Shown: one piece after another, positions 745 through 36,450 of the stretch
Layout: each line of letters starts with the position of its first letter
How positions within the stretch are numbered: the stretch's first letter is position 1
Sequence record: MT119360.1
Origin: Enterococcus phage nattely
Direction: 5' to 3' (one strand)
Length of the DNA: 64,000 bases
Translations under genes and position numbers: made by a program
The notes under the pieces: generated by a model
Seen by the model: only the letters and a program-made list of their open reading frames with translations
What the model was told of the DNA's origin: nothing
The model's database searches: none

Positions 745-772
745 AATAAATGGGTATTTTGTAAAAAAACTG

Positions 773-801
773 TTTACAAATGCCCATTTTTGGTATATAA
801 T
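773..801 (+). promoter_or_regulatory. sigma-A type promoter (TTTACA-17-TATAAT) overlapping the arm of an imperfect terminator hairpin
   Basis: TTTACA 773-778, 17 nt spacer, TATAAT 796-801; the -35 lies inside inverted repeat aaatgggtatttt...aaatgcccattt. Confidence 0.6.
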
Positions 802-837
802 AAATATATAAATAAATAAAAGAAAGTAGGAATTACA

Positions 838-1050
838 ATGAAAAAATTTGAAGATAATCCATTTAACTTTATCGAAGATGGAATTTTTATTGAGCCAATT
901 AAAAATCCATTTTCATGTGAAGCAGCATATGAAGAAGCTTGTTCTCACGTATTAGGTATTATTAAAGTAAATGAAGAAGTTGGTAATGATGTAACAGTTG
1001 AAAAACAAATGATGTCATGGTTAGACAAATTATCATATGAATATATTTAA
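838..1050 (+). CDS. hypothetical protein
   Basis: ORF after promoter; RBS AAGTAGGAA. Confidence 0.5.
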   Translation: MKKFEDNPFNFIEDGIFIEPIKNPFSCEAAYEEACSHVLGIIKVNEEVGNDVTVEKQMMSWLDKLSYEYI

Positions 1051-1064
1051 AGGAGGAAATTATA

Positions 1065-1439
1065 ATGGAATTTTTTGGTGGAGAAGAAGTAACACAAGAA
1101 CAACTTGAAGTATTTTTTAATAAACACAATATTGGAGAACCGGGTGACAAGGCAATTTACTGGAGAGCAAAAGGGCAAATTAAAGATTTTGATGAGCGAA
1201 TTGCAGAATATTTACTTCAAATTAATTTTTTAGAAAAAGAATATAGTGAAATGAAAAAACGAAAAATTGAACAAGAAAATGATGATAAAATTTCTAAAAT
1301 GGATTGTGAAGAAGAATGTAAACGTTTAAATAAACTAATTTATGCTTATAAAAAATTAGTTTATGTTACTTCTATGCTTAAAGATACTTATAAAAAAGAT
1401 TTAGACATTAGTTTACATTTAGACGATATATTGATATAA
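1065..1439 (+). CDS. hypothetical protein
   Basis: ORF with AGGAGG RBS. Confidence 0.5.
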   Translation: MEFFGGEEVTQEQLEVFFNKHNIGEPGDKAIYWRAKGQIKDFDERIAEYLLQINFLEKEYSEMKKRKIEQENDDKISKMDCEEECKRLNKLIYAYKKLVYVTSMLKDTYKKDLDISLHLDDILI

Positions 1440-1472
1440 TATAATTATAAAATTTTATAAGGAGTTGAGTAA

Positions 1473-1976
1473 ATGGCAAGATTGGTCAAATGTTATGGTG
1501 AAGCATGTGAAAGCATTGGAAAAAAATGGGAAAAAGACATGTTAGTAAAATATAAAAATAAAAATTATTGTCCACAATGTGCAGAAATTGAAAAGAAAAA
1601 TGATGATGACCGTCAGTTATTATATAATTTAATTTCTGAGTTGTATAAAATTCCATTTCCAAATGGGTTAATGCTTCGTCAAATTAAACAATTTAAAGAA
1701 CAACGAAAATATTCATATGAAAATATTCGTAAAGCATTATTATATGCAAATTATGTTCAACATGTAAATTTTAGTCCAAAATATGGGTTGGGAATAGTTC
1801 CATATGTAATTGACGAAGCAATTCGTTATCATGATGATCAAGTGAAAAAAGCCAAAGAAATGGAAGGCAAACAAGTGGTCACAACGAAGACAACGGTTCG
1901 TAAAAATTTTAACTCTTATGATAGAGATGAAAAAATGAAAAAGAAAATGATTGATTTGGAGGATATTGAATTATGA
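1473..1976 (+). CDS. zinc-ribbon protein, possible replication initiation or helicase-loading factor
   Basis: CxxC...CxxC pairs (CYGEAC, CPQC); stop overlaps the helicase start (ATGA), suggesting translational coupling. Confidence 0.35.
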   Translation: MARLVKCYGEACESIGKKWEKDMLVKYKNKNYCPQCAEIEKKNDDDRQLLYNLISELYKIPFPNGLMLRQIKQFKEQRKYSYENIRKALLYANYVQHVNFSPKYGLGIVPYVIDEAIRYHDDQVKKAKEMEGKQVVTTKTTVRKNFNSYDRDEKMKKKMIDLEDIEL

Positions 1977-3553
1977 GCACCATGGAGTTAACATTAAATC
2001 CGACAAGAGCGATTTATAATTTTTTTGGCTCTGTAATGAAATCACCGGAAATTTTGAAAGCACCTGAAATTATTTTAGGTGACCGTGATTTTGTTCAATC
2101 ATTTCATAAAATTGTTTATGCAGCATTGAATAACATTATTTTTAGTAATAGAGATAATATTAGTGATATTAGTCCAATTGATGTGGATAATTATCTTGCT
2201 AAGTATCCAAACTATTATCGAGTTTGGGAAGAAAATAATGGTGTTGAATATTTAAATAATGCAAAACAAGTTTCAAACACTCAAATTGCGACAAAAGACT
2301 ATGAAACAATTAAAAAATTTAGTTTATTAAGAAACTATGTTGAAAATGGTATTGATGTTTCAGATATTTATGAATATGATAGCAATGATTTAGGAGCATT
2401 AACAGAGAGTAATAAAGTATTAGAAAATACAAGTATCAACGAAATTATTGAACATTTCACACAAAAAGCAATTGAGATTCGAAATGAGTGGAATGTTGAT
2501 GATGGGAAAGTTAAAGATTTTAAAGCTGGTGATGACTTAGATGGACTTTTGGATCGTTTAGTTGAGAACCCAGATTTAGGTTTTCCATTTCAGAACTTAA
2601 TGTATAATACACTTTTTCGTGGAATGCGCAAAGAGAAATTTATGTTGAGATCGGGTGCAACGGGTACTGGTAAAACTAGACAAGCAATAAGAGATATGGT
2701 ATCAATTGCTTGTGATAAAATTTGGGTCACAGGATTAGGTTGGAAAAGTTTGGGTCCTTCATTTCCAGCATTGTTTATATCAACCGAAATTGAACAAGAA
2801 GAATTACAAACAATTATGTTAGCATATTTAACTGGAATTCCAGACTCTGATATTAAAAATGGTAACTATGATACGGCAACACGTAAGAGATTAGAAGAGG
2901 CAATTGAGATTTTGAAGAAAGCGCCTTTATTCATGACTTACATTGAGGACTTCTCAATCAGTGATATTGAAATGAAAATTGAAGAGTATATTGTCAAAGA
3001 AAACGTACAATATGTTGCATTTGACTATGTTCAAATGACGCCAAAATTGAGTAAAACAATGAATGATAATTTTGGAACAACTTTGCGTGAAGATCAAATT
3101 TTAGTTCATTTTTCGTCAGCATTAAAAGGTATTGCTGGTCGTTATGGAATTTTTCTTGAAAGTAGTACACAATTAAATAGAGGTAGTAAAGAAATCGAAA
3201 ATCGTGATGCATCTTCACTTCGTGGAGGTTTAGCGACAGCTGATAAGGTCGATTATGGTATTTTAACATTTAAAGTTTCTCAGAAAGAAAAAGATGGATT
3301 AAAACATATTTTGCAGCAAGGTTTTGGTGGAGATATTCAAAAAACACCGGATTTTTCACATTGGGTTTATAAAAATCGTGCTGGTTTAGACCATGTTGTA
3401 ATTTGGACAAAAATGAATTTGGGAACAATGCGTGAAGAAGTATTATTTGTAACTGATTATGATTTTAATTTAATTGAGATAAATGGAACTGAAATTGAAT
3501 TTGAAAGTGTTGATACAATGCCAGAAGAAATTGAAAATGTTCCAGTATTTTAG
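1973..3553 (+). CDS. DnaB-like replicative DNA helicase
   Basis: Walker A RSGATGTGKT in the C-terminal RecA-like domain after an N-terminal helical domain; 526 aa. Confidence 0.75.
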   Translation: MSTMELTLNPTRAIYNFFGSVMKSPEILKAPEIILGDRDFVQSFHKIVYAALNNIIFSNRDNISDISPIDVDNYLAKYPNYYRVWEENNGVEYLNNAKQVSNTQIATKDYETIKKFSLLRNYVENGIDVSDIYEYDSNDLGALTESNKVLENTSINEIIEHFTQKAIEIRNEWNVDDGKVKDFKAGDDLDGLLDRLVENPDLGFPFQNLMYNTLFRGMRKEKFMLRSGATGTGKTRQAIRDMVSIACDKIWVTGLGWKSLGPSFPALFISTEIEQEELQTIMLAYLTGIPDSDIKNGNYDTATRKRLEEAIEILKKAPLFMTYIEDFSISDIEMKIEEYIVKENVQYVAFDYVQMTPKLSKTMNDNFGTTLREDQILVHFSSALKGIAGRYGIFLESSTQLNRGSKEIENRDASSLRGGLATADKVDYGILTFKVSQKEKDGLKHILQQGFGGDIQKTPDFSHWVYKNRAGLDHVVIWTKMNLGTMREEVLFVTDYDFNLIEINGTEIEFESVDTMPEEIENVPVF

Positions 3554-3564
3554 AGGTGAAATAA

Positions 3565-6451: not shown

Positions 6452-6467
6452 TAAAAATGTGGAGAAT

Positions 6468-6520
6468 GTTGTTTACATTCTCCTTTTTTATGATATAATA
6501 TAAATATAAATAAAAAAAAA
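6468..6520 (+). promoter_or_regulatory. terminator hairpin fused to sigma-A promoter
   Basis: hairpin ggagaatgttgtttacattctcc plus T-run; TTTACA inside the hairpin; TATAAT downstream. Confidence 0.55.
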
Positions 6521-7555: not shown

Positions 7556-8018
7556 AAGAATTGAAGGTCCATTAAAACATATTATTGATGATAAAAATAG
7601 GTATCTTGCACGAGATGTAAATTTTGTTCCAAAATTAAAAGATGAATTAATTAAGACATTTAGGCTGCTTTGTGATGGTGATGATAATGTTAGATTAGTT
7701 TATGATACTCATTTTAAACAATCATATATTTTTCATGCTCGAAAAGATGGAAATTTAATTTTTCCAATATTAGGTTTTTCTTTACAACAAAATGAAGATG
7801 AAATATGTGAAACCATTTTCGACCCATATAAAATGAGATATAACTATAACGTGTATATTATTGTTCATATTTTTGGTGAAGAAATATATCAATTGTCTAT
7901 TGACCAAATATCAGTTTTTCATGATGAAAAAGGTGAAGAAATACCTATAGAGATTAAATTTTTAAATGGTAACACAAGAGAATTTAGTCGTTACAACAAA
8001 CTATTAGATTTATTTTAA
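7548..8018 (+). CDS. hypothetical protein
   Basis: ORF; internal ATG at 7548 preferred over the track start 7527. Confidence 0.4.
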   Translation: MNRRIEGPLKHIIDDKNRYLARDVNFVPKLKDELIKTFRLLCDGDDNVRLVYDTHFKQSYIFHARKDGNLIFPILGFSLQQNEDEICETIFDPYKMRYNYNVYIIVHIFGEEIYQLSIDQISVFHDEKGEEIPIEIKFLNGNTREFSRYNKLLDLF

Positions 8019-8021
8019 AAA

Positions 8022-8080
8022 ATGAGACTTTGTAAAAAAACTATTTACAAAGTCTCATTTTTTATGTATAATAAATATAT
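8022..8080 (+). promoter_or_regulatory. terminator hairpin with embedded -35, then -10
   Basis: hairpin tgagactttgtaaaaaaactatttacaaagtctca plus T6; -35 TTTACA in the 3-prime arm; TATAAT in gtataataaatat. Confidence 0.6.
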
Positions 8081-8681: not shown

Positions 8682-8882
8682 ATGAAAGAAAAATTAGAAT
8701 CAGGAATGGCAGTAATGGTTAATGTGGACGATGGTCAAACTTTAATCAAGGATAAAATTGGAATTATTACAGAAGTTTTTCCTCAAAAATATACAGCATT
8801 AACTGGTTTTCATTATGAAGTTTCACTTTTAAATTGTGGAACTGTTGTTAGATGTAATAAAAAAGAAATTAAGAAAATGTAG
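8682..8882 (+). CDS. hypothetical protein
   Basis: ORF with GGAGG RBS. Confidence 0.45.
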   Translation: MKEKLESGMAVMVNVDDGQTLIKDKIGIITEVFPQKYTALTGFHYEVSLLNCGTVVRCNKKEIKKM

Positions 8883-8953
8883 ACCGATAGGTTTACATTT
8901 TCACTATTTATTGATATAATATATTTATAAAATAAATTAAATTGGAGGTATTT

Positions 8954-9469
8954 ATGAATTTAGTTATTGAGGGTCCTAAAGCAAGTGGAAAAAGCACAAT
9001 TTCTCACCACTTTATTGAAAAATATTTAACGACATATGACCATATGAGCTCCGATAGCGATAACTCATTAAAAGGACATTTAAATTTATTAAAAGGCAAA
9101 AAAGGTGAATCATTAAATCATGTAATAGATCGTTTTTCAGTTGGGGAAATGATTTATCCTAATTTATATGGCCGTGAAGGAAAATTAAATTTAGATGAGT
9201 TTAATGTCACAATGAGTTCAGAAAACACATTATACGTTATTCTTTATTCTTCGTCTGATCAATTATTATTTGATCGAATTGAATGGAGAGGAAGAAACAC
9301 TGATGATGAAGATCATGATTTAGTGTCAAAATCAAATTTTGCATTTAAAATGATTGGTGAATCATTGAAATATCGTGAAAATGTATTATTATTTGATGTT
9401 GCAAAAGTAGGATTAAAAGAAATTATTAAAATAATTGAAGATAAATTGGAGGAGTTAAACAGATGTTAA
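8954..9469 (+). CDS. P-loop deoxynucleoside/deoxynucleotide kinase
   Basis: Walker A IEGPKASGKST; DRFSVGE resembles the dNK ERS/DR motif; ATG at 8954 with GGAGGT RBS. Confidence 0.5.
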   Translation: MNLVIEGPKASGKSTISHHFIEKYLTTYDHMSSDSDNSLKGHLNLLKGKKGESLNHVIDRFSVGEMIYPNLYGREGKLNLDEFNVTMSSENTLYVILYSSSDQLLFDRIEWRGRNTDDEDHDLVSKSNFAFKMIGESLKYRENVLLFDVAKVGLKEIIKIIEDKLEELNRC

Positions 9470-10308
9470 AATTTAAAAATGTAAATGATGCATGGATTCA
9501 TTTGGCAAAAAATGTCGTTTATAAAGGTGATGTTGTTGGAAATACAAAAGAATTAACAAATGTATCATTCCAAATTGAAAATCCATTAGATAACATTGTA
9601 AAAAGCCGTCACAATTTTTCATTAACATATTATTTAGGTGAAACTGTATGGTATGGTGCTGGTAAAGACGATGTTGAATTTATTAGTAAATTTGGCCGTA
9701 TTTGGAATCATTTAACAGATAATGGAATTTATAACAATAGTGCTTATGGTTATATCTTAAAAAATAAGCATGGTTTTGACCAAATCGAAAAAGCAATTGA
9801 ATTATTACGTGGAGATCAATATAGCCGACGAGCAGTGTTAAATATTAATATTCCACGGCGTGATGTTATTGAAACAAAAGATGAAATGTGCACAATTGCA
9901 TTACAGTTTTTAATTCGCGATGGAAAATTAAATATGACTGGAATTATGCGTTCAAATGATTTATGGACTGGTACTCCATATGATATTTTTTATTTCACAA
10001 CATTACAACGATATGTTGCATATAAATTAAATATTGATATGGGAACATATACGCATTTTGCAACTTCTTTACATTGTTATTTACGTGATGAAGAAAAATT
10101 AATTAAATCTTTTGAAAATGATGCAAATAATATTTATGCTGGTATCGATATTAATGGAATGCGTTTATTATTACAAGCTGAAGAATTATATTATACAACA
10201 CGTAAAGAAGAAAATGCAAAATTAGAATTAGTTAAATTATGTAAAGAACGTAATATTATTAAAGGAAAAGAAGTTGAAAAAACTATTGAAAAACTATCTG
10301 CTATTTAG
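9463..10308 (+). CDS. thymidylate-synthase-fold pyrimidine hydroxymethylase, best match to T4 gp42 dCMP hydroxymethylase
   Basis: SRRAVLNI / EMCTIALQFLIRDGKLN / MRSND block aligns to T4 gp42 DSRRGIMIY / FMCTNTVQYLIRDKKIN / MRSND; Asp in TPYDIF aligns with gp42 Asp179, where ThyA has Asn177. Confidence 0.7.
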   Translation: MLKFKNVNDAWIHLAKNVVYKGDVVGNTKELTNVSFQIENPLDNIVKSRHNFSLTYYLGETVWYGAGKDDVEFISKFGRIWNHLTDNGIYNNSAYGYILKNKHGFDQIEKAIELLRGDQYSRRAVLNINIPRRDVIETKDEMCTIALQFLIRDGKLNMTGIMRSNDLWTGTPYDIFYFTTLQRYVAYKLNIDMGTYTHFATSLHCYLRDEEKLIKSFENDANNIYAGIDINGMRLLLQAEELYYTTRKEENAKLELVKLCKERNIIKGKEVEKTIEKLSAI

Positions 10309-10762: not shown

Positions 10763-11821
10763 ATGGAAATTTTATTATTGAATGTCGCAAATAACATTAC
10801 GGATTTTCGAACAGTATCAAGTGGGGAAACAGTTTATCTAAAACAAATGTTAGAACAGTTAGGCCATGGAGTTACAATTGCTTCAAATAAGAATGGTGAA
10901 TATGCGGTTGCATTTGAGGAAATTGAGGATATTAACAATTTTGACAAAGTAGTTGTTTTACCTGCTTCACTGAACTTTTTCGGTGGTGTAGAAAACCCGA
11001 CAATTATTAAAAATTATAAATTATTAGCAAAATATAATGGAACTATTAATATTTTGCAAACTGACGCACGTTTGCCATTTAAGCAGTTGTGGCCAGCAAT
11101 TGAGAAGCGGGGATGGGGATATAAAAAAGAAGAAGTTTGGATTAATGCCCCAATTAAAGTAATTGCACAATCAAAAAATTTAGATGAAGTTAAAACACAA
11201 TATGAAAAAGAAATTTTCAATAACATTGAGTTTACACATTTTCCAATTGAGCGTTATGCTGGCATTGTGGCGCTAATGAATCCAATTGATGAAGTCGAAG
11301 AAAAAGAACATGATTTAGTTTATTATGGTTCATTCCGTGGAGGCAATCGTGCTGCTAAAATGGCAGAATTTTTATGTGGAAACATTGTAGAAAAATTAGA
11401 TGTCCACGTATTTGGAACAATTCGAGAAAAACAATTAGCTAAAAGTAGCGATGGTCCATTTCCTTCGTTTGGTAAAAAGATGAAAATGAATGAAATTAGA
11501 CAAGAGGTTAGCAAAAGTTTCTCAACTTTAATTATTGGTGAAAAATTTTATAATAATGCAATGTTGACAGTGAGGGTTTGGGAAACATTAAGTAGCGACG
11601 CAGTAGTTCTCATTGACAACGATTTTGACTCTTACCATAATTTATTTCCTAATTCGCCATGGCGGTATGTTGAAAAAGAAGAAGATCTTATCGAAGTAGT
11701 AAAATCTCTTAAAGATGATGAAAATAAGAGAAAATTAGCGATTCAAGAGCAAAAAGAAGTGTTAGAAAAAATGATTGATTCTTCTCAATGGTTAAGAGAT
11801 TTTGAAAATATTTTAGCTTAA
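10763..11821 (+). CDS. bgt: DNA beta-glucosyltransferase (T4 BGT homolog, GT-B fold)
   Basis: full-length collinear similarity to T4 beta-glucosyltransferase: MEILLLNVANNITDFRTVSSGETVYL vs MKIAIINMGNNVINFKTVPSSETIYL, NFFGG, TDARLPFKQLWP vs TDIRLPFSQSWP, YGSFRGGNRAAKMAEFL vs YGGSFRSGQRESKMVEFL, LRVWETLSSDAVVLIDNDFD vs LRVWETMASDAVMLIDEEFD; 352 aa vs 351 aa. Confidence 0.85.
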   Translation: MEILLLNVANNITDFRTVSSGETVYLKQMLEQLGHGVTIASNKNGEYAVAFEEIEDINNFDKVVVLPASLNFFGGVENPTIIKNYKLLAKYNGTINILQTDARLPFKQLWPAIEKRGWGYKKEEVWINAPIKVIAQSKNLDEVKTQYEKEIFNNIEFTHFPIERYAGIVALMNPIDEVEEKEHDLVYYGSFRGGNRAAKMAEFLCGNIVEKLDVHVFGTIREKQLAKSSDGPFPSFGKKMKMNEIRQEVSKSFSTLIIGEKFYNNAMLTVRVWETLSSDAVVLIDNDFDSYHNLFPNSPWRYVEKEEDLIEVVKSLKDDENKRKLAIQEQKEVLEKMIDSSQWLRDFENILA

Positions 11822-11860
11822 CGGTTTACGTTAAGCTTTTTTTATGATATAATATAACTA
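11822..11860 (+). promoter_or_regulatory. terminator hairpin fused to promoter
   Basis: gcttaacggtttacgttaagc plus T7; TTTACG -35 in the loop; TATAAT. Confidence 0.55.
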
Positions 11861-11892: not shown

Positions 11893-12417
11893 ATGACGGT
11901 TCAGTTTAAAGCGAAAGGACATGAAGATAACATTATTCACTTATATTCAGATGGTGGTTGTCGGTCAACTGCTAAAAAAGGTGAAACTATAAAAGAAACA
12001 GATAAAAGTGCTTATGCATTCTTCTTAAAACAAGGTGGAAATGAAAAATTAGATGGGCAAGCAAGTTATGGTAAAACAAATAATAATCAAGAAATTATGG
12101 GATTATTAATGGGCTTACGCGCTATTAAACGCCCAGAATTTCCAGTTGTTGCATATTTAGATTCAGCTTATGTTGTTAACTGTTTACAAGCTGGCTGGTG
12201 GAAGAAGTGGAAAGCTAATGGATGGACGAAAAAAGGTGGATTAGCAAATGCTAAAGAATGGAAAGAATTAATTGAAGAATTAGAACGTTTTCCATTTTTT
12301 AGAATTGAAAAAGTTAAAGGACACAGTGGCTTTGCAGATTATAATGATTTAGTTGATAAACACTTAAATAAATTAATGGATGAATTACCTGAAATTGGAA
12401 AGGGAAATGTTTTATGA
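11893..12417 (+). CDS. rnh: ribonuclease H (RNase HI-like)
   Basis: YSDGGC N-terminal motif and C-terminal GHSGFADYNDLVDKH; 174 aa. Confidence 0.75.
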   Translation: MTVQFKAKGHEDNIIHLYSDGGCRSTAKKGETIKETDKSAYAFFLKQGGNEKLDGQASYGKTNNNQEIMGLLMGLRAIKRPEFPVVAYLDSAYVVNCLQAGWWKKWKANGWTKKGGLANAKEWKELIEELERFPFFRIEKVKGHSGFADYNDLVDKHLNKLMDELPEIGKGNVL

Positions 12418-13376
12418 TATATTATGGAGAGCCATATTTTGAACTATTTTCATATGAGGCGACTGATAAAGCAAGAAATGACACTTGTAAAATATTAAAC
12501 TCCATGGGGTATTCACCTTTAAAATTATCTTGTTTTTCAGACGTGAACATTGAGAAAGCTGATGAAGAATTAGCTAACATTGAGGAAAATGACATAATTC
12601 TCTTACAATATCCAACTTACAGTGGAGCAGATTATGAAAAGAGATTAATTGAAATTTCTCATAAGAAAAAAGCAAAAATCTGTGCAATTGTTCACGACTT
12701 AGAATCAATAAGATTCTATGGAAATGATAGTGACATTGAGATTTTGAATGGTTTCGATATTATATCTCTTCCCTCCATGGAGATGTATAAAAAACTCTTA
12801 AAACAAGGACTAAAAACAAAAGTAAAGATACAGTTAATTTGGGATTTTCTCGCCATGGATAATCAACAATGGTATGATACAAATTCGGACATTGTCTTTG
12901 CTGGAAATTTAACAATGGAAAAGAGTAAATGGATAATGGATGTAGATTTTCCTATGTTGGTGTATGGCGACAATATAAATAATTTAATTTTTAATGATGA
13001 TGTAAAATATTGTGGTAAAAAGAATGATTTGGAATTAGTAAAAGAAATTGGTGGACAAATTGGATTATTATGGGAAGAAGGATTATATAAAGATTATTTA
13101 AAATATAATTTATCGTTTAAGCCTTCTTTATATCTTGCAGCAAATTGTCCGATTATTGTTCCAGAAAAAACCCATATTGGAAATATTGTAAAAACATACA
13201 AAATAGGCGTAACTGTTAAAGATATTAAAAGACAAACAATGTTGGATGCTGTTATTAAATTAAAAGATAATTTAAACTTTTATCAAGAACGTGTTTCAAC
13301 ATTTGGAGAAACAATTAGAAATGGGCAAAATATGAAAACGTTAGTTGAAAGTATGGTGAGAGAAATTGAAAATTGA
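12414..13376 (+). CDS. putative GT-B glycosyltransferase (C-terminal GT4-like nucleotide-sugar binding region)
   Basis: DIVFAGNLTMEKSKW and LYLAANCPIIVPEKTHIGNIV resemble GT-B donor-binding motifs; start overlaps the rnh stop (ATGA). Confidence 0.4.
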   Translation: MIYYGEPYFELFSYEATDKARNDTCKILNSMGYSPLKLSCFSDVNIEKADEELANIEENDIILLQYPTYSGADYEKRLIEISHKKKAKICAIVHDLESIRFYGNDSDIEILNGFDIISLPSMEMYKKLLKQGLKTKVKIQLIWDFLAMDNQQWYDTNSDIVFAGNLTMEKSKWIMDVDFPMLVYGDNINNLIFNDDVKYCGKKNDLELVKEIGGQIGLLWEEGLYKDYLKYNLSFKPSLYLAANCPIIVPEKTHIGNIVKTYKIGVTVKDIKRQTMLDAVIKLKDNLNFYQERVSTFGETIRNGQNMKTLVESMVREIEN

Positions 13377-15276: not shown

Positions 15277-15290
15277 TATTTTTAGAAAAA

Positions 15291-15325
15291 AGACTGTTTA
15301 CAAAACAGTCTTTTTTTGATATAAT
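15291..15325 (+). promoter_or_regulatory. terminator hairpin with -35 in its loop, then -10
   Basis: agactgtttacaaaacagtct hairpin 15291-15311, T7 run, TTTACA 15297-15302, 17 nt spacer, TATAAT 15320-15325. Confidence 0.65.
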
Positions 15326-15358: not shown

Positions 15359-18300
15359 ATGAGTTGGTTTAGTATTCACAATCATTCGCATTTTAGTAAT
15401 TTTCGTTTAAGAGATGCAACCAATGCGCCACAAGATATTTTAAGAGTCGCAAATGAAAAGGGATTGAAAGGAATTGTATTATCAGATCACGAGACTATTG
15501 CGGGTGCACCTACATTTTTAGATAATGCTAAAAAAATGAAAGAAGAAGGTAAATTACCAGAAGATTTTGTTGCAGCAATTGGTAATGAAGCATATTTAAT
15601 TGATCGTAAATATGAGGAACCAATGAAAAACCAAGAAAAAGTTAGATATTTTCATTTTTTAATGGTAGCAAAAAATCAACGTGGTTTTGAATTTTTGAAA
15701 AAACAAACAGCTAAAGCATGGGAAAATAGCACATACTCAAGAGGTATGGAACGTGTTCCAACATTTAAAGATGATTTACAAGAATTAATGAAAGAATATA
15801 AAGGTGATGTAATTGCATCAACTGCGTGTATTGGTGGCGAACTTCCGCAATTAATCCTTAAGTTAGAAGAATTTCAAAAATCAGGTGATGCGTTACGTAT
15901 TGAAACAACAAAACGAGAGATACATTATTTCATTCAATTTTTAGTTGAAACTTTTGGCCACGATAATGTATTTTTTGAATTACAACCATCAAAACAAAAT
16001 GAACAATTGATTGTCAACAAATGGTTACCAAAAATTGCAAAAGCGTATAATATCAAATGTATCGTCACAACAGATGCTCACTATCTTACATTAGAACAGC
16101 AAGAATTTCATAAACAATATTTACAGGCATCTGAAGGTGAGCGTGAAGTTGAATCTTTTTATGCAACAACATATATTTTCTCATATGATGAATTATTGGA
16201 ATATTTCGATAAAGAATTATTAGATGAATTATGTGAAAACACATTGATTATTCGTGATATGGTTAATAATGAATTAAAATATAAACATGAGACAGTTATT
16301 CCACGATCACATATTCCACATTTTGAACAAGATGAAAATGTGATGCAAAAAATTGATGAGACAAAATATCCGAACATTTATAAGATGATGAGATCTTCGG
16401 TTATTGAAGATAGATATTATCATTTTAAAGTTATGAAAGGTTTTGTTGAAAAAGAACAAGAATTTAATGATGAAAATTTAAGTAGAATTGATTTAGAATA
16501 TAGTGAACTTCAAGCAATTAGTGAACAATTAAATCAACCGATGACGTCGTACTTTTTGGCAATGACAGAATTTGTTGATATTATGTGGGAATATTCATTA
16601 GTTGGGGTTGGACGTGGTTCTGCAGTATGTTATTATACAAATTATTTATTAGATATTGTTCAATTAAATCCAATTAAATATGATTTACCATATTGGAGAT
16701 TTTTATCTCGTGAATATGTTGGAGAATTTCCAGATATTGACGTTGATGCTCAAGGTAGTGAACGTGCAAATATTATTGAAGGTGTAAAAGAAAAATTTGG
16801 ACATGAAAATGTGTTAAATATTGGAACTTACACAACTGAGGGACCTCGAGCAGCATCATTAACCGCATGTCGTGCATTCGGTTTAGATCCGGATACAGCA
16901 CAAAATATCACAAATGCAATTCCGAGTGACAAGGGGTTCGCTTGGCCATTACAAGACGCATTTTTCGGAAATGAAAAAGAACACAGAAAACCAGATAAGC
17001 AATTTATTTATATGGTAAATGAATATCCAGGACTGCAGGAGTTAATGTTACAATCTCAAGGTTTAGTAAGTGGACGTGGACAACATGCTTCAGGTGTTGT
17101 TGTTTTTCCAGACGGATATACTTCTTTAAACACAATGATGAAGACAAGTAAAGGGTTGCCAATCACTCAGTGGGATGCACATACAACTGAGGTCGCTGGT
17201 GGAATTAAATATGACTTTTTATCAATTAATGCACTAGATAGAATTAGAGCCGCAATTGATATGTTGTTAAAAGATGGTAAAATTGAATGGCAAGGATCAT
17301 TACAAGAAACTTTCAATAAATATTTTCACCCGGACGTTTTAGATATGGAAAGTCAAGAAATGTTTGATATGCTATTTAATGGAGAAATTATTTCAGCTTT
17401 TCAGTTTGAAGCAAAAACAGGTAGACAAGCATTAGAAAAAATTAATGCGCGTACATTCGATCAATTAGTTGCTGCAAATTCATTAATGCGTTTATCTTCA
17501 GATGGAGAACAGCCAATTGATAAATACATTCGTTATAAAAATGATTTAAACGAATGGGAAAAAGATATGGACGAATATAATTTAACTGAAGATGAAAAAG
17601 CAGTTATGCACGAATTATTAGATAAAAAATTTGGTGTGTGTGAAGTTCAAGAATCAATTATGAAAATTGCAATGCATGAAAAAGTAGCAAAATATAATTT
17701 GAGAGAAGCAAAAGGATTACGTAAAGCTTCAGCGAAAAAAGACCCAACAATTCAAGTTAAACAAAAAGAATTATTCTTTAAAAAAGGTAGAGAAAATGGA
17801 ACTAGTGATAATTTATTAAATTATATTTGGAATGAATGTTATGTTCCAACATTTGGTTATTCATTTTCAGAACCTCACGTAGCAGCATATACAATGATTT
17901 TAATGATTGAAATGAATATTGCTTATAGATATGGGGTTCATTATTGGAAAGCAGCATGTTTGAATGTTGATGCGGGAATTATCGGAGAACTTGAAGCGGG
18001 GACAAAATACGGTAAAGTCGCAAAAGCATTATCAAATTTCCGAGAAGATGTTATTCCACCGTCAGTTAATAAAAGCGATATTGGTTTTACACCGGATCAA
18101 AATACAGGCAAAATTATGTATGGATTAAAACCAATTGTTGGTATGAATAGTAAATTAGCAAAACAAATTATTGAAGGTCGTCCATATAAAAATATGCAAC
18201 ATTTTATTGATCATAATGTTATAAATGGTGATTTAACAAATACAAAAATGGTAACATTAATTAAAAGTGGATTATTTGATGAATTATATCCAAATAGGAA

Positions 18301-19213: not shown

Positions 19214-19282
19214 GAGAAGTGTTTACACTTCTCTTTCTTTTTGATATAATATAAATATAAAATTAATGAAAGAGGTTAGAAC

Positions 19283-19852: not shown

Positions 19853-19928
19853 TCAACTTAAAGTAAAAATTTGATAAAAAATGGGAGTGATGGTTTACAA
19901 ACACTTTTTCTCTTGATATAATATTAAT

Positions 19929-24433: not shown

Positions 24434-24743
24434 CTTTAAAGAAGTTATATTATTTGCTCTTTTAGCTATGACTGCATCTCTGATTATTAAAAATAATAAT
24501 CTAGAGGTGTCAGTTAAAACTTTAAAAGATAAAAATGAAACATATCAAAACGTAATTAAAACAGTAAATGAAAATAAACGTTTTGTTTCAGATTCAAAAT
24601 ATGGCAATCCAAATTGGCAAGTAGTTGGACATGATTATTTTGATGGAAAATCAATGACAATTATAAAAGATAGTAAAAACAATACTGAATATATCGTTAT
24701 TGAAAATGGTAAAGCTTTAGGTGTAACACAGCGTATAAAATAG
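24414..24743 (+). CDS. membrane-anchored or secreted protein
   Basis: N-terminal hydrophobic segment VILFALLAMTASLII. Confidence 0.45.
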   Translation: MNFLKHNFKEVILFALLAMTASLIIKNNNLEVSVKTLKDKNETYQNVIKTVNENKRFVSDSKYGNPNWQVVGHDYFDGKSMTIIKDSKNNTEYIVIENGKALGVTQRIK

Positions 24744-24823
24744 TACCATTTTACTATCAAATATCTTTATGATATAATATAATTATAGAAGAGTTAGAAA
24801 TATATAGAAAGAAGGAAACTATA

Positions 24824-25372: not shown

Positions 25373-25394
25373 AAAAATAAAAAAAATATATAAA

Positions 25395-25429
25395 AGGCTG
25401 TTTACAAACAGCCTTTTTTGGTTTATAAT
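25395..25429 (+). promoter_or_regulatory. terminator hairpin with -35 in its loop, then -10
   Basis: aggctgtttacaaacagcct hairpin plus T6; TTTACA 25401-25406; TATAAT 25424-25429 (17 nt spacer). Confidence 0.65.
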
Positions 25430-25481: not shown

Positions 25482-25673
25482 ATGACAATCAATCAATTTT
25501 TACAAATCACAGAACGCGGAATTAAAGTAGTTATCAATTTTGAAAATGGCGAAACTGCTTCATTTAATTATTTTAGTTCATTCGAAAAAAATGATGTATA
25601 CCAAGCAAACAAAGATAAAGAAATCGTGTTAGTCCAACCTGCTGCAGGAGCAATCTTTCTAACGGTTAAATAA
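25482..25673 (+). CDS. hypothetical protein
   Basis: ORF with GAGGAA RBS. Confidence 0.45.
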   Translation: MTINQFLQITERGIKVVINFENGETASFNYFSSFEKNDVYQANKDKEIVLVQPAAGAIFLTVK

Positions 25674-25925: not shown

Positions 25926-26027
25926 TTTTAAAAAATATCATAAAGGCTGTTTACTTTTCAGCCTTTATGATATATAATAAATACATGATAAACAAACAAA
26001 ACAAAAAATAGAAAGTAGGAAATTAAA

Positions 26028-26375: not shown

Positions 26376-26379
26376 AATG

Positions 26380-26421
26380 TTTACAATCTACTGTGGATAT
26401 GATATAATATATCCACAGTAG
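26380..26421 (+). promoter_or_regulatory. sigma-A promoter whose -10 box sits between a perfect 13-bp inverted repeat (candidate operator)
   Basis: TTTACA 26380-26385, TATAAT 26403-26408; IR ctactgtggatat 26388-26400 / atatccacagtag 26409-26421. Confidence 0.55.
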
Positions 26422-26452: not shown

Positions 26453-27088
26453 ATGAACAAATTATTTTTATTAAACACAGAAAACGGTATTAAAAAAATT
26501 AGCATGTCGTACAACGATCTTTATGATCATTTTTTCAATATGATTCAAAATGAAACTTGGAAAATCACTAGAGTTTATTCTAATAGTATTGATAGAGATG
26601 AAGTAGAGCAGCAGTTCACAATCGAGTTATGGTACGCATTTGAAAATTATGATATTTCAACTGGTAACTGTATTTCAACATATATCTTCCACAGATTTAA
26701 AAAAGCAAAACGCGATTTATTATATCCTGTTCTGCAATCTAAACGCAATAAATGGAAAAATTCAAATGTTTCTTCATTAAATGTAAAATTAAGTGAAGAC
26801 GATAAATATGATTCTTCAAATAAAAAATTTGAAAATGATGAAACATATCAACAAATGGAGAGCAATGGCGCAGAAGCTTTATTAAATGATGAAGCATTGG
26901 TTGATTTAATTTTATCACATTTTAAAACTGATTCAGAATTAGATTTAATTAGAATTTTAATAGATAAGAAAAATTTTAGTGTTGTAAAATATGCAGAAAA
27001 ATATTCAATTTCACGCGTGGCGGCAAATAATCGAGTTAAAAAAATGAAAGAAAAAATGGCAGAAATTTTAATAAATGAATGGTTATAG
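26453..27088 (+). CDS. sigma-70 family (ECF-like) sigma factor, candidate late-gene sigma
   Basis: region-2-like EQQFTIELWYAFENYD...YIFHRFKKAKRDLL and region-4 HTH ELDLIRILIDKKNFSVVKYAEKYSISRVAANNRVKKMKEKMAE. Confidence 0.55.
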   Translation: MNKLFLLNTENGIKKISMSYNDLYDHFFNMIQNETWKITRVYSNSIDRDEVEQQFTIELWYAFENYDISTGNCISTYIFHRFKKAKRDLLYPVLQSKRNKWKNSNVSSLNVKLSEDDKYDSSNKKFENDETYQQMESNGAEALLNDEALVDLILSHFKTDSELDLIRILIDKKNFSVVKYAEKYSISRVAANNRVKKMKEKMAEILINEWL

Positions 27089-28144: not shown

Positions 28145-30073
28145 ATGGCTGATAAAATTAAAAAATTAGATGATCGCGCACAAGCTAGGGAAAAACTGAG
28201 CATATGGTATGGCTCACGTGATAATTTTTATCACGGTGTAAAGGAGCTTATTGCAAACGCTGCAGATGAACTTAGAAATCACTCTAGTGAACCTGGTAAA
28301 ATCGAAGTTACTTTATCCAATAATAATAAAAGAATTATGGTTAGTGATAATGGTAGAGGCATTCGTATTGGTGGCGAAACAGACGGTGAAAAAAATTATG
28401 ACTTATTATTCCGTACACTATTTGCAGGAACAAAATATGATGTTACCGAAAATGTGACAACCGGAACTAATGGAGTTGGAACAACCGTATTAAATTATAC
28501 TTCAAAATTATTTGCTGTTATGTCACATTATGATAACAAAGTTCATAAAGTACGTTTCATTAATGGTGGAGAACTAGATGGTGAATATATGGAAAAAGAT
28601 ATGAGTGAAATTGAAAATGCTCACGGTTCAACTTTTGTTGTTGAACTTGACGAAACAATTTACACACATACTCAATTTGACCCTAATCATATCAAAGAAA
28701 TTGTCAAACATTTTGCTGTGGCTTCACCAGGTATCGAATATCGTTTTGTTCATGATGAAACAGTTACAAAATTTAAATATGAAGGTATTCGCGATCGTTT
28801 TGATGAATTAATTGGAACAACTACAACGTCAGGTATTTTCACACTGGGCGAAGTAGAAAATACTAGTGAGGTTCCACAAATTGACGGGGAGGTAGTAGTT
28901 GAAAAAAACAAATATAATATTGTATTAACAACCTCACCGGACACGCATCAAGAATCATATTTGAATATGACATGGTTAGAAGAAGGTGGCGCAATTAATG
29001 ACGGGGTTTTAGATGGTGTTCGTTTATATATGAATAAATATTGTCGAGCTAAAAAATTATTCCCTAAAAAAGTGACTGCTTTTAATAAAGAAGACATTGA
29101 AAATTCACTATCGTTTATCACTGTGGTTGAATCAAACATTGTTGAATTTAGTAACCAAACAAAATTAAGTACAAATAAGAAAAAATATAAAGATGAAGTA
29201 AAAGTATATATTGAAAATTTATTAACAGCAATGGAAGCACAACAGCCGAAAGAATTCAATAAATTTGTTGATCATTTGTTAACTGTCCAAAAGGCAAATG
29301 GCGCAAACGATCGTGCTCGTCAAAAATTGAAAAAACAATTGACGGAAAAAGTGACTGGAATTGGCAATAAGATTGAAAAATTAATTGATTGTGAAATTCA
29401 TGGATTAGATGCGGAACTATTTTTAACAGAAGGTGATTCAGCGAATGGATCGATTGTTGATAGTCGGGATGATCATTTTCAAGCTGCATTTCCATTGCGT
29501 GGCAAAGTGTTAAATGTTTTACGCGCTTCACCTGAAGATATTTTCAAAAATAAAGAAATTGTAAATATGATCAAAATTATTGGAACTGGAATTCAATTTG
29601 GTAAAAAAGATGATTTTGATATTGATAACTTACGTTTTGGAAAAATTATTATTACAACAGACGCAGATGCAGATGGTGGACATATTATGTCACTATTAGT
29701 TGCATTTATTTATCGGTTTATGAAACCATTATTGGAAAAAGGACATGTGTACGTTGCACAAACACCATTATATGAATTGAAATTTAGTGATGATTCAGTA
29801 GTTTACTTTTTAACTGAAGATGAAAAAAATAAAAATATTGGCAAATATGAAGGTCAAAAATATACTATTAATCGTCTAAAAGGATTAGGTGAAGTTGATG
29901 CTGAAACAATGGAAGCAACAACTATGAATCCAAAAACCCGTAATCTTATTCAATTAACAACAGAAAAAGCAGAAGATTTTCTAATGATTGATAAATGGAT
30001 GAACGATGATGTTGAACCCAGAAAAGAAATGATTAATAATCAACTTGCAAATTATGTTCACGACATTGATTAG
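28145..30073 (+). CDS. type II DNA topoisomerase ATPase/TOPRIM subunit (GyrB/ParE-like, T4 gp39-like)
   Basis: GHKL ATPase N-terminus; TOPRIM EGDSANGS and DADADGGHI motifs. Confidence 0.8.
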   Translation: MADKIKKLDDRAQAREKLSIWYGSRDNFYHGVKELIANAADELRNHSSEPGKIEVTLSNNNKRIMVSDNGRGIRIGGETDGEKNYDLLFRTLFAGTKYDVTENVTTGTNGVGTTVLNYTSKLFAVMSHYDNKVHKVRFINGGELDGEYMEKDMSEIENAHGSTFVVELDETIYTHTQFDPNHIKEIVKHFAVASPGIEYRFVHDETVTKFKYEGIRDRFDELIGTTTTSGIFTLGEVENTSEVPQIDGEVVVEKNKYNIVLTTSPDTHQESYLNMTWLEEGGAINDGVLDGVRLYMNKYCRAKKLFPKKVTAFNKEDIENSLSFITVVESNIVEFSNQTKLSTNKKKYKDEVKVYIENLLTAMEAQQPKEFNKFVDHLLTVQKANGANDRARQKLKKQLTEKVTGIGNKIEKLIDCEIHGLDAELFLTEGDSANGSIVDSRDDHFQAAFPLRGKVLNVLRASPEDIFKNKEIVNMIKIIGTGIQFGKKDDFDIDNLRFGKIIITTDADADGGHIMSLLVAFIYRFMKPLLEKGHVYVAQTPLYELKFSDDSVVYFLTEDEKNKNIGKYEGQKYTINRLKGLGEVDAETMEATTMNPKTRNLIQLTTEKAEDFLMIDKWMNDDVEPRKEMINNQLANYVHDID

Positions 30074-30157
30074 AATTTTGGGAAAAGTAGTTTACTTTTC
30101 CCCATTTTCTTGATATAATATAAACATAGATATTAATAGAAATGAGGAATATAAATT

Positions 30158-32922: not shown

Positions 32923-33076
32923 TTTAAAAGATAGGACTTCGGTCCTATTTTTTTTACATTAATATTACTAAAATTACATTGGTGAAATACTGTTTACTTC
33001 TATTAGTTAACATGATATAATATACCTATAATCAATTAATGATTATAAAAAAATATAGAAAAGAGAGTGAATTATT

Positions 33077-33784: not shown

Positions 33785-33912
33785 ATAAAAAATAAATTTT
33801 ATTTAAAATAATTGTACTTTGTGAGCAAAAACTGTTTACAGAGTACAATTTCTAATGTATAATAAATATATAATAAATAAACAAATAAAAAATAAAGAAA
33901 AGAGGAAATGAA

Positions 33913-34131
33913 ATGATTGAAACAACTCTATTTATGACAGGTAAAGAAAATGAAGAACAGTTAGCAGATTTTAACAAAAAGAGAGCGTTAGCATTGAACT
34001 TAATGGGATATGTTATTATTAAAACACCGGAGTTCAACAAAATGCTTATCAGAAAAGGTTTAGAATTAACATCGGATAAAATGATTGAGTTTATAAATGA
34101 ATATAAATTAGACTTAATTGAAGTAGCTTAA
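33913..34131 (+). CDS. hypothetical protein
   Basis: ORF after the promoter cassette at about 33830. Confidence 0.45.
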   Translation: MIETTLFMTGKENEEQLADFNKKRALALNLMGYVIIKTPEFNKMLIRKGLELTSDKMIEFINEYKLDLIEVA

Positions 34132-34199
34132 AATAAAAAAATGTACACCTATATAAAAATATAGGTGTACATAAATAAAAATGAAAAGAGGAAAATAAG

Positions 34200-34610: not shown

Positions 34611-34693
34611 AATAAAAAAAAACTATTTACAATATCTTTATTATATGATATAATTATTTATGTAAAACAAATAATAAATCGGAGGAATTTAAA

Positions 34694-35300: not shown

Positions 35301-35499
35301 AAAAGATAAGTTAGAAAACACTATAATGATGTGTATTGATTTGGATACGGGGCAATATTTTAAAAGAGAAAATACAGAAATTAAAACTGGTGTTGTTGAA
35401 GATCTTATTATTGATTTAGAAAAAATGACTAGTCAAATGATCGATTTATGTAGACAATTGTGTGAAGAAGAGGAGCTAAAAAATGAAGGATTGGATTAA
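35293..35499 (+). CDS. hypothetical protein
   Basis: ATG at 35293 with AAAGGAGAAG RBS, preferred over track start 35260. Confidence 0.4.
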   Translation: MTKKDKLENTIMMCIDLDTGQYFKRENTEIKTGVVEDLIIDLEKMTSQMIDLCRQLCEEEELKNEGLD

Positions 35500-35719
35500 A
35501 GCTATATTTTTAGGAGTATTTCAAGTTATGTTATTTATAATTGTGCCAACAATATTCCTAGGATTAATGGCAGGTTTTATGTATTTATTTATTATTTATG
35601 CCCTTATTCCAATTAAAGAATATATGCCCACAATTCTATTGTCCATTTTATCAATAGCTGTTTTCATTATTGTTCTATTATCTGTAGTTGATGCACATGA
35701 TAGAATGAAAAATAACTAA
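35483..35719 (+). CDS. small membrane protein (two TM helices)
   Basis: hydrophobic helices IFLGVFQVMLFIIVPTIFLGLMAGFMYLFIIYALI and ILLSILSIAVFIIVLLSV. Confidence 0.5.
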   Translation: MKDWIKAIFLGVFQVMLFIIVPTIFLGLMAGFMYLFIIYALIPIKEYMPTILLSILSIAVFIIVLLSVVDAHDRMKNN

Positions 35720-35918
35720 AAAATAATAAAAAAATGAGCATTTACTGTTTACAAATGCTCATTTTTGGTTTATAATATATTTATAGTTAATTAATAAATA
35801 TTCTTCCATAAAGAAAAAAACTTTTAAAAATATTTTAAAAAACTATTTACAAATTACAAGTAATAATGTATAATAAATATATAATAAATAAACAAATAAA
35901 AGAAAAGAGGAAATTAAA

Positions 35919-36128
35919 ATGACTAAACAAACTATGGAAAACAAAATCAATGAATTAAGAAAAGAAGCTGGATTAATGTACGGTGACTTAGATAAAGCAT
36001 TAGCTGAAGGAAACTATGATTTATATGAAGAACTTGGTGATATTATGAGCGCTAAATATGAAGAAGCTCGTCAATTGATTATTGAATTTAACGAAACATT
36101 TGGAGAAACTCCAAACTTACTTTTCTAA
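35919..36128 (+). CDS. hypothetical protein
   Basis: ORF after tandem promoter cassettes at 35745 and 35845. Confidence 0.5.
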   Translation: MTKQTMENKINELRKEAGLMYGDLDKALAEGNYDLYEELGDIMSAKYEEARQLIIEFNETFGETPNLLF

Positions 36129-36160
36129 TAAAAAATATAAAATGAAATGAGGAATATAAA

Positions 36161-36367
36161 ATGCAAGAAAATTACAAATACGCAGTGAACATCTTAAATG
36201 CAAAACACGAAAGTGATAGAGAATGGTTACAAAAATTATTTGATGAATCAATTCCTAAAACAAAAACTATTTTTGAATTTGATACAGAAGAAGAAGCTGA
36301 TGAGTTTGAAAAGAAATTAAATAAAGATGGACATAAAACTTTTAGAAATAGAATCATTCATTTTTAA
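36161..36367 (+). CDS. hypothetical protein
   Basis: ORF with GAGGAA RBS. Confidence 0.45.
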   Translation: MQENYKYAVNILNAKHESDREWLQKLFDESIPKTKTIFEFDTEEEADEFEKKLNKDGHKTFRNRIIHF

Positions 36368-36372
36368 AAATA

Positions 36373-36415
36373 TTTACAAAATGTTCTCACTATGATATAA
36401 TATTATCATAGTGAG
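36373..36415 (+). promoter_or_regulatory. sigma-A promoter with the -10 box between a 10-bp inverted repeat (candidate operator)
   Basis: TTTACA 36373-36378, TATAAT 36396-36401; IR ctcactatga 36386-36395 / tcatagtgag 36406-36415. Confidence 0.5.
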
Positions 36416-36450
36416 ATATAAATAAAAAAAAAAGAAAAGAGGAACATATA

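Follow-up and report, generated by a model that had tools for sequence, protein, structure and literature searches.

The DNA analyzed here is a stretch of 64,000 nt from Enterococcus phage nattely (sequence record MT119360.1), referred to below as the window. It carries 27 sites with the pattern TTTAC(A/T/G)-N17-TATAAT, all on the + strand, which are probably early promoters read by the host sigma-A RNA polymerase, 12 of them fused to the intrinsic terminator of the upstream transcription unit. A reading of this kind, in which many sigma-A-type promoters overlap a rho-independent terminator within a unit of about 60 bp, had been proposed in an initial annotation of the window, and it appears to be the best explanation of the computed data. 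The direct observations behind it are the site pattern and its statistics, the hairpins, the conservation of their structure, and the early expression of the same strand in the close relative VPE25.

Megablast comparison places the window in an Enterococcus siphophage of the subfamily Andrewesvirinae that resembles VPE25 and vB_EfaS_140, with relatives of about 86 kb. The nucleotide identity of the window is 96% with vB_EfaS_140 and about 90% with VFW, VPE25, and vipetofem; the Denvervirus phages 9183 and Planchet share 77% identity with it in the polymerase gene. Positions 1 to 37.1 kb hold + strand genes with a G+C content of 27 to 30%, covering replication, nucleotide metabolism, and many small open reading frames (ORFs), and positions 37.2 to 62.7 kb hold − strand genes for lysis and virion proteins, with a G+C content of 34%. 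In the complete VPE25 genome, the + strand arm runs 21.5 kb further to the left.

Promoter-like sites and hairpins on the early strand

The exact pattern TTTACA-N16-18-TATAAT has 22 matches in the window against 0.25 expected, and none of 100 shuffles reached 22. When one mismatch was permitted, six extra intergenic + strand sites were found, at 11825, 24750, 25950, 30091, 32993, and 62844. A position weight matrix (PWM) was made from the sites themselves and used to scan both strands of the 64 kb in a 17-nt spacer frame. Twenty-six sites score 22.6 to 48.7 bits, and the site at 6472, the only one with a 16-nt spacer, scores 11.9 bits in this frame. Apart from the 27 sites, nothing on either strand of the 64 kb reaches 4 bits, and first-order Markov random sequences gave 0 to 1 PWM hits. 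All 27 sites lie on the early strand and none on the late (−) strand; whole genomes contain 39 sites in VPE25 and 38 in vB_EfaS_140, on the early strand without exception. The observation is confirmed as real and far from chance. The initial annotation had counted about 27 promoters between 760 and 36420, all with spacers of exactly 17 nt wherever counted; the PWM set also numbers 27, with 26 sites at 773 to 36401 and one more at 62844, and the spacer length is correct for every site except 6472.

All of the sites are intergenic, usually 4 to 29 nt past a stop codon, and a start codon with a Shine-Dalgarno sequence follows 31 to 55 nt downstream, except at sites that are upstream in tandem pairs. 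At the 12 sites with a predicted terminator, a gap of about 70 to 95 nt from stop codon to start codon contains this terminator, the promoter, the leader, and the ribosome-binding site. Tandem promoter pairs, 98 to 160 nt apart with no ORF between, occur at 19894/20055 and 35748/35846 in the window and at 46778/46905 and 58246/58343 in VPE25.

Twenty-one sites match the −35 plus −10 consensus at 5/6 plus 6/6 positions, and the other six match it at 4/6 plus 6/6. The 6-nt discriminators contain 9 G/C in 162 nt, compared with a background of 28%, in agreement with the AT-rich discriminator noted earlier. An A is located 7 nt after the −10 in 26/27 sites, and positions −1 to +3 read TATA in 19/27. 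The extended −10 motif TGn is present in 16/27 sites (TRTG in 9), and an A-tract plus CTG or CTA is present in 11/27. The sites fall into two architectures. Type I, with 11 sites and downstream variants A and C, reads AAAAA-CT(G/A)-TTTACA ... TATAAT-AAATA-TATAAT-AAATAAAC or TATAAT-ATATT-TATAGT, with the A-tract at about −46 to −39. Type II, with 16 sites, reads TTTACA ... T(A/T)TGA-TATAAT-ATAAA-TATAAA. TGn occurs in 0/11 type I and 16/16 type II sites (Fisher p 8e-8), and CTG or CTA just upstream of the −35 occurs in 11/11 and 4/16, respectively. The −35, the 17-bp spacer, the perfect −10, the near-pure A/T discriminator, and the A start are common to both types. Given these two clean architectures, the earlier suggestion that all sites are recognized in the same way is too simple, and the downstream string quoted there, TATAATAtaaatataaataaa, exists as just one of three variants.

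The two types also differ in the genes that they precede. The type I first genes are ten distinct ORFs of 43 to 115 amino acids; a single one has a homolog in 9183, three are nonsyntenic in VPE25 or vipetofem, and ORF 33913-34131 is unique. Of the type II first genes, which are often replication genes, 7/15 are conserved in 9183 and none is displaced. The tandem order of class C followed by class A is kept as a unit in relatives.

The strand that bears the sites is expressed early in VPE25. Transcriptome sequencing (RNA-seq) of that phage identified 78 early genes, including nucleotide and replication genes, with transcripts up by 10 min, and found structural and lysis genes to be late (PMC7064774). 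In its Table S2A, − strand orf_105 to orf_130 climb steadily to 40 min and most + strand genes peak at 10 min; orf_131/132, orthologs of the genes behind the site at 62844, are early (PMC7064774). Table S2A is row-normalized and its two replicates often disagree; genes behind both types are mostly highest at 10 min. That study is at the gene level only, with no promoters mapped (PMC7064774). Neither promoters nor terminators of the phages are treated in the publications on vB_EfaS_140 and 9183, and a mapped promoter turned up in none of the papers searched.

For the hairpins, the 50 to 68 nt ending directly before the −10 were folded, with random 50-nt same-strand windows and flank shuffles that keep the hexamers as controls. 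A strong hairpin covers the −35 at 12/27 sites (773, 6472, 8044, 8892, 11825, 15297, 19222, 25401, 25950, 30091, 33835, and 35748), with folding free energies (dG) of −11.6 to −23.2 kcal/mol. Ten of the 12 lie under the 1% quantile of random windows (binomial p 7e-14), and z scores against the flank shuffles range from −3 to −10. The ten examples given in the initial annotation are all real hairpin sites, and 773 and 8892 are two further ones. The −35 is situated in the loop or the 3′ arm, or, at 15297, in the 5′ arm and loop. The 3′ arm ends 1 to 13 nt upstream of the −10, and the spacer is filled by a T-run, often mirrored by an A-run 5′ of the stem; an uninterrupted run of at least four T occurs at or just past the 3′ arm in 9/12 hairpins. 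The hairpins lie 4 to 29 nt past the upstream stop codon or overlap it. Their stems are 9 to 21 bp long, shift in register by up to about 10 nt, and have no sequence in common beyond that imposed by the −35. In two independent terminator scans of the + strand from 1 to 37.3 kb, five of the six strict hits coincide with a −35, the remaining one being a weak hit within the polymerase ORF, and essentially no other convincing + strand terminator was found in the early arm.

Phage 9183 has about 29 sites of the same design, again with TTTACA, in intergenic regions that are no longer alignable with the window. There, a hairpin covers the −35 at 11 sites, and the terminator is separate, just upstream, at four. 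A hairpin with an unrelated stem is kept at orthologous junctions on both sides of the polymerase gene, downstream of RecJ, and upstream of RNase H; the arms before the polymerase gene, for instance, are AGACTGTTT/AAACAGTCT in the window and GGTTCG/CGAACC in 9183. The 9183 record annotates terminators, and no promoters, at exactly these junctions. Hairpin gain or loss is seen at 1412 and 27922 here versus 20290 and 45614 in 9183. From comparison of the stems, whose registers differ, their structure, not their sequence, is apparently what is conserved. Structure kept while stem sequence changes points to a function at the RNA level, namely termination, and argues against a sequence-specific operator.

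In the proposed mechanism, host sigma-A RNA polymerase would read the sites through the TTTACA −35, the 17-bp spacer, TATAAT, the A/T discriminator, and the A start. Type I sites (11 sites) may be boosted by an UP-element-like upstream A-tract followed by CTG, and type II sites (16 sites) by the Gram-positive extended −10, (T-R-)TG-A. In RNA arriving from upstream, the hairpin would fold so that its loop or 3′ arm contains the −35, the T-rich spacer would act as the U-tract, and the upstream RNA would thereby be released inside the promoter; the same bases in duplex DNA would serve as −35 and spacer. The early arm (37 kb) would be cut in this way into many short insulated units. As a weaker, secondary effect, the near-identical type I cassettes, in which contiguous identical stretches reach about 32 nt, may provide homology for recombination events by which ORFans change slots, an idea already put forward for the promoter-early stem-loop (PeSL) cassettes of T4-type phages.

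Possible gene exchange and alternative explanations

The gene-content differences between the window and vB_EfaS_140, VPE25, and vipetofem are consistent with such movement. Five of the six start at the 3′ end of a cassette, in the leader or at the start codon, which gives p of about 0.015 under a null in which about 0.32 of junctions have a cassette; in three cases the other end likewise coincides with a cassette, the next one along. ORF 25482-25673 provides the clearest example: in the window it is placed between the sites at 25401 and 25699 (P25401 and P25699), in VPE25 after the tandem pair P58246/P58343, with its junctions in the shared AATAAATAAAC leader and directly after the stop codon. 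For ORF 35919-36128, the nearest VPE25 homolog is at a nonsyntenic cassette slot. ORF 33913-34131 (+; 72 amino acids) has no tblastn match in VPE25, vB_EfaS_140, vipetofem, or 9183, and each relative has other sequence in place of segment 33928-34614. The link between cassettes and gene shuffling is no more than suggestive.

Several points weigh against the reading of the sites as host-read promoters fused to terminators or against its secondary part. Recognition by sigma-A, the positions of the starts, and termination are all deduced from the sequence. No hairpin covers the −35 at 15/27 sites, 2 of which have an inverted repeat over the −10 and 13 of which are promoter-only, so that the claim that each cassette ends the upstream gene agrees with the 12 hairpin sites and fails at the others. 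The U-tract is poor at 8892, 25950, and 33835, and most stems are A/T-rich. Between 9183 and Planchet, one of three early-region indels touches a cassette, and the pooled p is about 0.03. No difference in timing between type I and type II could be read from Table S2A, which is too noisy for this purpose and shows a few later genes behind each type. Finally, the phage encodes one or more sigma-like proteins, and use of a phage sigma at some sites is possible.

Among the alternatives, the one that survives best is that the cassettes are kept chiefly as recombination substrates, in the sense of the PeSLs of T4-like myoviruses, and owe their uniformity to copying or gene conversion instead of selection on each promoter. 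The type I cassettes, which are near-identical over about 60 nt and flank ORFans, would fit this, as would the five of six indels that begin at a cassette and the ORFs that occupy other slots in relatives (three) or are unique (one); in addition, the phage family encodes Sak4-like annealing, RecJ-like, and RusA-like proteins. However, the statistics are weak (p of about 0.02 to 0.03), the Denvervirus pair shows no such link, and the exact class A string is confined to this phage group. The exact 48-nt class A pattern was found in IMG/VR in the vipetofem contig only, and blastn with the 300-nt cassette region returned six close relatives only, plus a chance 53-nt match in Bacillus phage G. Moreover, −35 and −10 vary no more among the type II sites, although their flanks are unrelated and the genes that follow are syntenic core genes, and this argues for selection on promoter function. 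Maintenance chiefly for recombination is accordingly rather unlikely.

It is more doubtful still that a phage-encoded sigma, rather than sigma-A, reads the type II sites. The candidate is the product of ORF 26453-27088 (+), a divergent sigma-70/ECF-like protein (NCBIfam TIGR02937, E 1e-6, below cutoff; Pfam Sigma70_r2, E 0.01) with a C-terminal helix-turn-helix; the annotations of 9183 and Planchet call its ortholog a sigma factor, and the left early arm of the relatives contains another sigma-like gene. The sharp distinction between the two architectures speaks for such a factor, as do some type II-driven VPE25 genes (e.g., polymerase and gyrase B) that peak after 10 min. Later-peaking genes are nevertheless found behind both types, and the types are alike in −35, spacer, −10, discriminator, and start. 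The sites match 11/12 sigma-A consensus positions and add TRTG or the A-tract, which are classical sigma-A elements. The sigma genes themselves sit behind type II sites (P26380, and P13664 in VPE25), so that these, at a minimum, have to be read by the host polymerase. A phage sigma would find a more obvious target in the late strand, which has no such sites, and the protein encoded by 26453-27088 likely drives late transcription from this − strand, to judge from its lack of TTTACA/TATAAT sites. A search for a late-promoter motif on the − strand yielded no statistically supported motif, an eye-picked candidate, TTAYWTATATAA, having 12 matches against 11.4 expected.

The inverted repeats might also be operators for a dimeric phage or host repressor instead of terminators, which is quite improbable. 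Some shut-off of early transcription is required, and the palindromes fall exactly on core promoter elements. Two of them, 13-bp repeats at 26388-26421 (P26380) and 36385-36416 (P36373), are centered on the −10 and have no U-tract, and the repeat arms of the VPE25 ortholog of P36373 resemble those of P26380; these two could be operators or, in PeSL fashion, stem-loops placed over the −10. The stems at the 12 −35 sites, on the other hand, have no common sequence other than that set by the −35, vary in register and length, and are replaced by unrelated stems in 9183; no single sequence-specific protein could read them all. They are followed by T-runs, often mirrored by upstream A-runs, and both the 9183 record and the two independent scans call them terminators.

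The weakest alternative, that a second −10-like hexamer (TATAAT, TATAAA, or TATAGT, at −1 to +5) acts as a sigma-dependent promoter-proximal pause (compare lambda PR′) that loads an antiterminator, draws on the presence of this hexamer one helical turn past the −10 in all three variants, beginning 5 nt after the −10 and forming in class A a perfect tandem 11-mer (TATAATAAATA twice), and on the numerous downstream terminators to be overridden, but it is extremely improbable, as no Q-like protein was identified and 9183 has (G/A)TAA(A/T) at this place, with the purine start kept and the hexamer lost. A pause element was thus rejected as a feature of the family. The start context in 9183 is (G/A)-T-A-A (e.g., cGTAAAT and aGTAATA) with no second −10-like hexamer, which indicates that the conserved feature is the context of the start site (Y-1, R+1, T+2, A+3).

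Individual sites and neighboring genes

From left to right along the + strand, P773 (748-808; type I, variant A) has its hairpin at 748-789 with the −35 (773-778) in the 3′ arm, a −10 at 796-801, and a predicted +1 at A808, and it precedes ORF 838-1050. P1412 (1401-1447; type II, TGA-TATAAT) has no hairpin and precedes ORF 1473-1976 and the DnaB helicase operon. P6472 (6451-6506; type II), the site with the 16-nt spacer, has a predicted terminator core at 6461-6483 (GGAGAATGT-TGTTT-ACATTCTCC) followed by T6, with the −35 across the loop and 3′ arm. P8044 (8016-8079; type I, A) has a perfect 21-bp hairpin at 8016-8064 (dG −23) with the −35 in the 3′ arm and is followed by a 43-amino-acid ORF, and P8246 (8235-8281; type I, A), which has no stable hairpin, is followed by a 64-amino-acid ORF. 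P8892 (8873-8927; type II) precedes a kinase/hydroxymethylase-like operon and has a 13-bp hairpin at 8873-8902, whose 3′ arm includes the −35 and whose U-tract is weak. At P11825 (TTTACG; 11815-11860; type II), which precedes RNase HI, the putative terminator at 11815-11837 is followed by T7, and the stop codon of the β-glucosyltransferase (BGT) gene abuts its 5′ arm.

P15005 (14994-15040; type I, C), without a stable hairpin, is followed by a 62-amino-acid ORF. The DNA polymerase III alpha gene (15359-19213) is preceded by P15297 (15285-15332; type II), where an A-tract, hairpin, and T-tract span 15285-15317 (AGACTGTTT-ACA-AAACAGTCT) and the −35 occupies the 5′ arm and loop. Directly after the polymerase stop codon lies P19222 (19203-19257; type II), with a predicted terminator core at 19212-19235 followed by TCTTTTT. 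P19894 (19883-19929; type II; no hairpin) is upstream in the tandem pair with P20055 (20044-20090; type I, A), at the leader end of which (20114) a 403-nt insertion relative to phage 140 begins. P21960 (21949-21995; type II) has only weak structure, and P24750 (TTTACT; 24739-24785; type II) has no hairpin. P25401 (25392-25436; type I, C), with a candidate terminator at 25392-25417 (AAAAGGCTGT-TTAC-AAACAGCCTTTT), precedes ORF 25482-25673. P25699 (25688-25734; type I, A) has no stable hairpin, and P25950 (TTTACT; 25936-25985; type I, A) has a hairpin at 25936-25972 (dG −19) whose loop includes the −35 and whose U-tract is weak.

P26380 (26369-26421; type II) has no −35 hairpin, bears the 13-bp repeat on its −10, and is followed by the sigma-like ORF. 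P27922 (27911-27957; type II; no hairpin) precedes a small ORF and the gyrase/topoisomerase subunit B gene, after whose stop codon lies P30091 (TTTACT; 30072-30126; type II), with a predicted terminator core at 30080-30102 (GGGAAAAGTA-GTT-TACTTTTCCC). P32993 (TTTACT; 32982-33028; type II) has no hairpin. P33835 (33810-33870; type I, A), with an 18-bp hairpin at 33810-33850 (dG −21), precedes ORF 33913-34131, and P34626 (34615-34661; type II), which has the lowest PWM score in the 17-nt set (22.6), marks the right edge of the replaced segment 33928-34614. P35748 (35730-35783; type I, C), with A5, hairpin, and T5 at 35730-35766, is upstream in the tandem pair with P35846 (35835-35881; type I, A; no hairpin), which precedes ORF 35919-36128. 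P36373 (36362-36416; type II), with its repeat on the −10, is the last promoter of the early arm. P62844 (TTTACT; 62833-62879; type II), outside the range covered by the initial annotation, precedes + strand ORFs at 62905 and 63035-63913.

Other features of the window were observed in or next to the late arm. Between the early and late arms, which converge, stands a strong hairpin (37174-37213) that looks bidirectional, and a tyrosine recombinase/integrase-family gene (37215-38192, −) at the end of the late arm is kept in all relatives, which are reported as lytic. A tRNA gene (61027-61098, −; Rfam RF00005, 59.7 bits) lies upstream of the large terminase gene and is a tRNA-Trp in the annotation of relatives; an Rfam scan of the whole window at gathering thresholds found this one tRNA as the only known RNA family. 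The −1 frame that overlaps the major capsid stop codon (gene at 55587-56789, −) stays open for about 50 codons (about 55440-55600, −) and encodes a Thr-rich tail (TPQPTTTTTTTVKPTTTTTTSTS...), by which the capsid protein may be extended through programmed frameshifting.

Cytosine hypermodification and comparison with known systems

The hexamer TTGACA is found at 0/27 −35 positions here and at none of the VPE25 or 9183 sites. Phage phiEF24C, which infects the same host species, has six TTGACA and two TTGACT sites and no TTTACA sites, which indicates that TTTACA is not imposed by the host, and Lactobacillus phage 8014-B2 uses mostly TTGAC(A/T/G). AT-richness was ruled out as the cause, because Staphylococcus phage 6ec has a G+C content of 29% and about 16 TTGACA sites. 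ORFs 9463-10308, 10763-11821, and 12414-13376 (+) represent a T4-like cytosine hypermodification set, comprising a thymidylate-synthase-family enzyme whose nearest solved relative is CMP 5-hydroxymethylase (E 9e-26; best thymidylate synthase, 4.5e-12), a full-length homolog of T4 DNA β-glucosyltransferase (E 8e-74), and a second sugar transferase. A CMP-hydroxymethylase-like enzyme and glycosyltransferases are encoded in every lineage with T as the third −35 base, namely, this phage, VPE25, and 9183/Planchet, and neither a hydroxymethylase nor a glycosyltransferase was found in the G-using phages phiEF24C, 6ec, and 8014-B2. The cytosines of VPE25 and VFW resist bisulfite conversion (PMC4999554). 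Among T4-like phages, T at −33 occurs in T4, PST, and RB69, which have sugar-hydroxymethylcytosine DNA, and G at −33 occurs in RB49 and RB43, which have canonical DNA (PMC1524935, PMC4122927, PMC4041780, PMC8056088). The T4 literature ties T(−33) to the Alt-modified polymerase (alpha subunit) (PMC2988021, PMC1524935); in this phage no Alt homolog came to light, though none was looked for.

The invariant third-position T might, tentatively, be an adaptation of host-sigma promoters to sugar-hydroxymethylcytosine DNA. With a G at this position, the template strand would carry a bulky modified C in the major groove, which sigma region 4 reads. The T/G split by modification genes is perfect in the phages examined but comprises only about two independent origins of T, and the conserved G(−14) and C(−31) likewise put a modified C in the major groove; for these two reasons the idea is rated low.

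The sites provide a map of candidate early transcription units for VPE25-like phages, which are under development against drug-resistant enterococci and whose promoters were previously undescribed. Strong host-sigma early promoters fused to terminators, analogous to PeSLs by comparison, would be new for this phage group. A merged promoter/terminator design described only for T4-like phages of Gram-negative hosts would have arisen again in Gram-positive siphoviruses, including 6ec. The units of about 60 bp may serve as ready-made compact insulators for engineering in Firmicutes, and the TTTACA/TTGACA split may offer a route to how bacterial RNA polymerase reads hypermodified DNA.

Gram-positive sigma-A promoters reportedly carry a −16 TRTG extended −10 and upstream A-tracts, as Helmann (in 1995) and Voskuil and Chambliss (in 1998) are said to have described. 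Primary-sigma promoters combine such elements in a "mix and match" fashion. The T(A/T)TG-A-TATAAT of type II and the A-tract of type I resemble these promoters. However, the host set is heterogeneous, whereas the phage set is near-invariant and never has the consensus G in the −35. Phage 6ec (Sextaecvirus), a distant relative of similar size whose DNA polymerase is 42% identical, has about 16 near-consensus promoters on its early strand, several with the −35 in the loop of a G+C-rich terminator-like hairpin and the T-run as spacer, such as ACACCC-TTGACAA-GGGGTGT-TTTTT-attaTATAAT (positions, e.g., 49713, 77057, 73560, 4044, and 163 [−]). Although 6ec differs in its TTGACA −35 and in having no hydroxymethylase or glucosyltransferase homolog that could be found, it indicates that the "−35 in terminator loop" design is wider than the Andrewesvirinae.

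Morons, according to what Juhala et al. reportedly described in 2000, are single genes flanked by their own promoter and terminator. Similarly, a type I cassette with its ORFan and the next putative terminator would form an autonomous unit that is gained, lost, or moved. Morons, however, belong to temperate phages, are expressed from the prophage, and lie among late genes, whereas the units here are early genes of a lytic phage behind one promoter family.

The early promoters of T4, "uber" promoters for the host sigma, combine a GTTTAC-type −35 and a perfect −10 with TGn and an UP-like A-tract (PMC2988021, PMC1524935). The T in place of G at the third −35 position is shared, and the A-tract, TGn, and perfect −10 all occur here; however, these elements tend to co-occur in T4, whereas the A-tract/CTG and TGn are mutually exclusive in this phage.

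The closest comparison is with the PeSLs of T4-like myoviruses, repeated intergenic elements composed of a strong sigma-70 promoter, an AT-rich upstream region, and a terminator-type stem-loop, in some cases overlapping the −35 or the −10; they number dozens per genome and are located preferentially upstream of ORFans and at indels between close relatives (PMC2839356, PMC4122927). Their promoter and terminator activities and the formation of mini-circles have been demonstrated, and the T4/PST consensus is TTTACW-N17-TAYWAT (PMC2839356, PMC4122927). A composite promoter/stem-loop motif is likewise present here, at 12 sites over the −35 and at 2 over the −10, and the position upstream of ORFans is shared by type I only. 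In contrast to PeSLs, where the stem-loop is mostly between the boxes or over the −10, the hairpin here is almost always over the −35, with the spacer as the U-tract. The setting is an Enterococcus siphovirus with sigma-A, the hairpin is at 12/27 sites only, there are two booster architectures, and the evidence here is from sequence. Since the Andrewesvirinae siphovirus lineage is unrelated to T4, the unit is not a PeSL by descent; it appears by analogy to work like one, and the resemblance is best described as functional and convergent.

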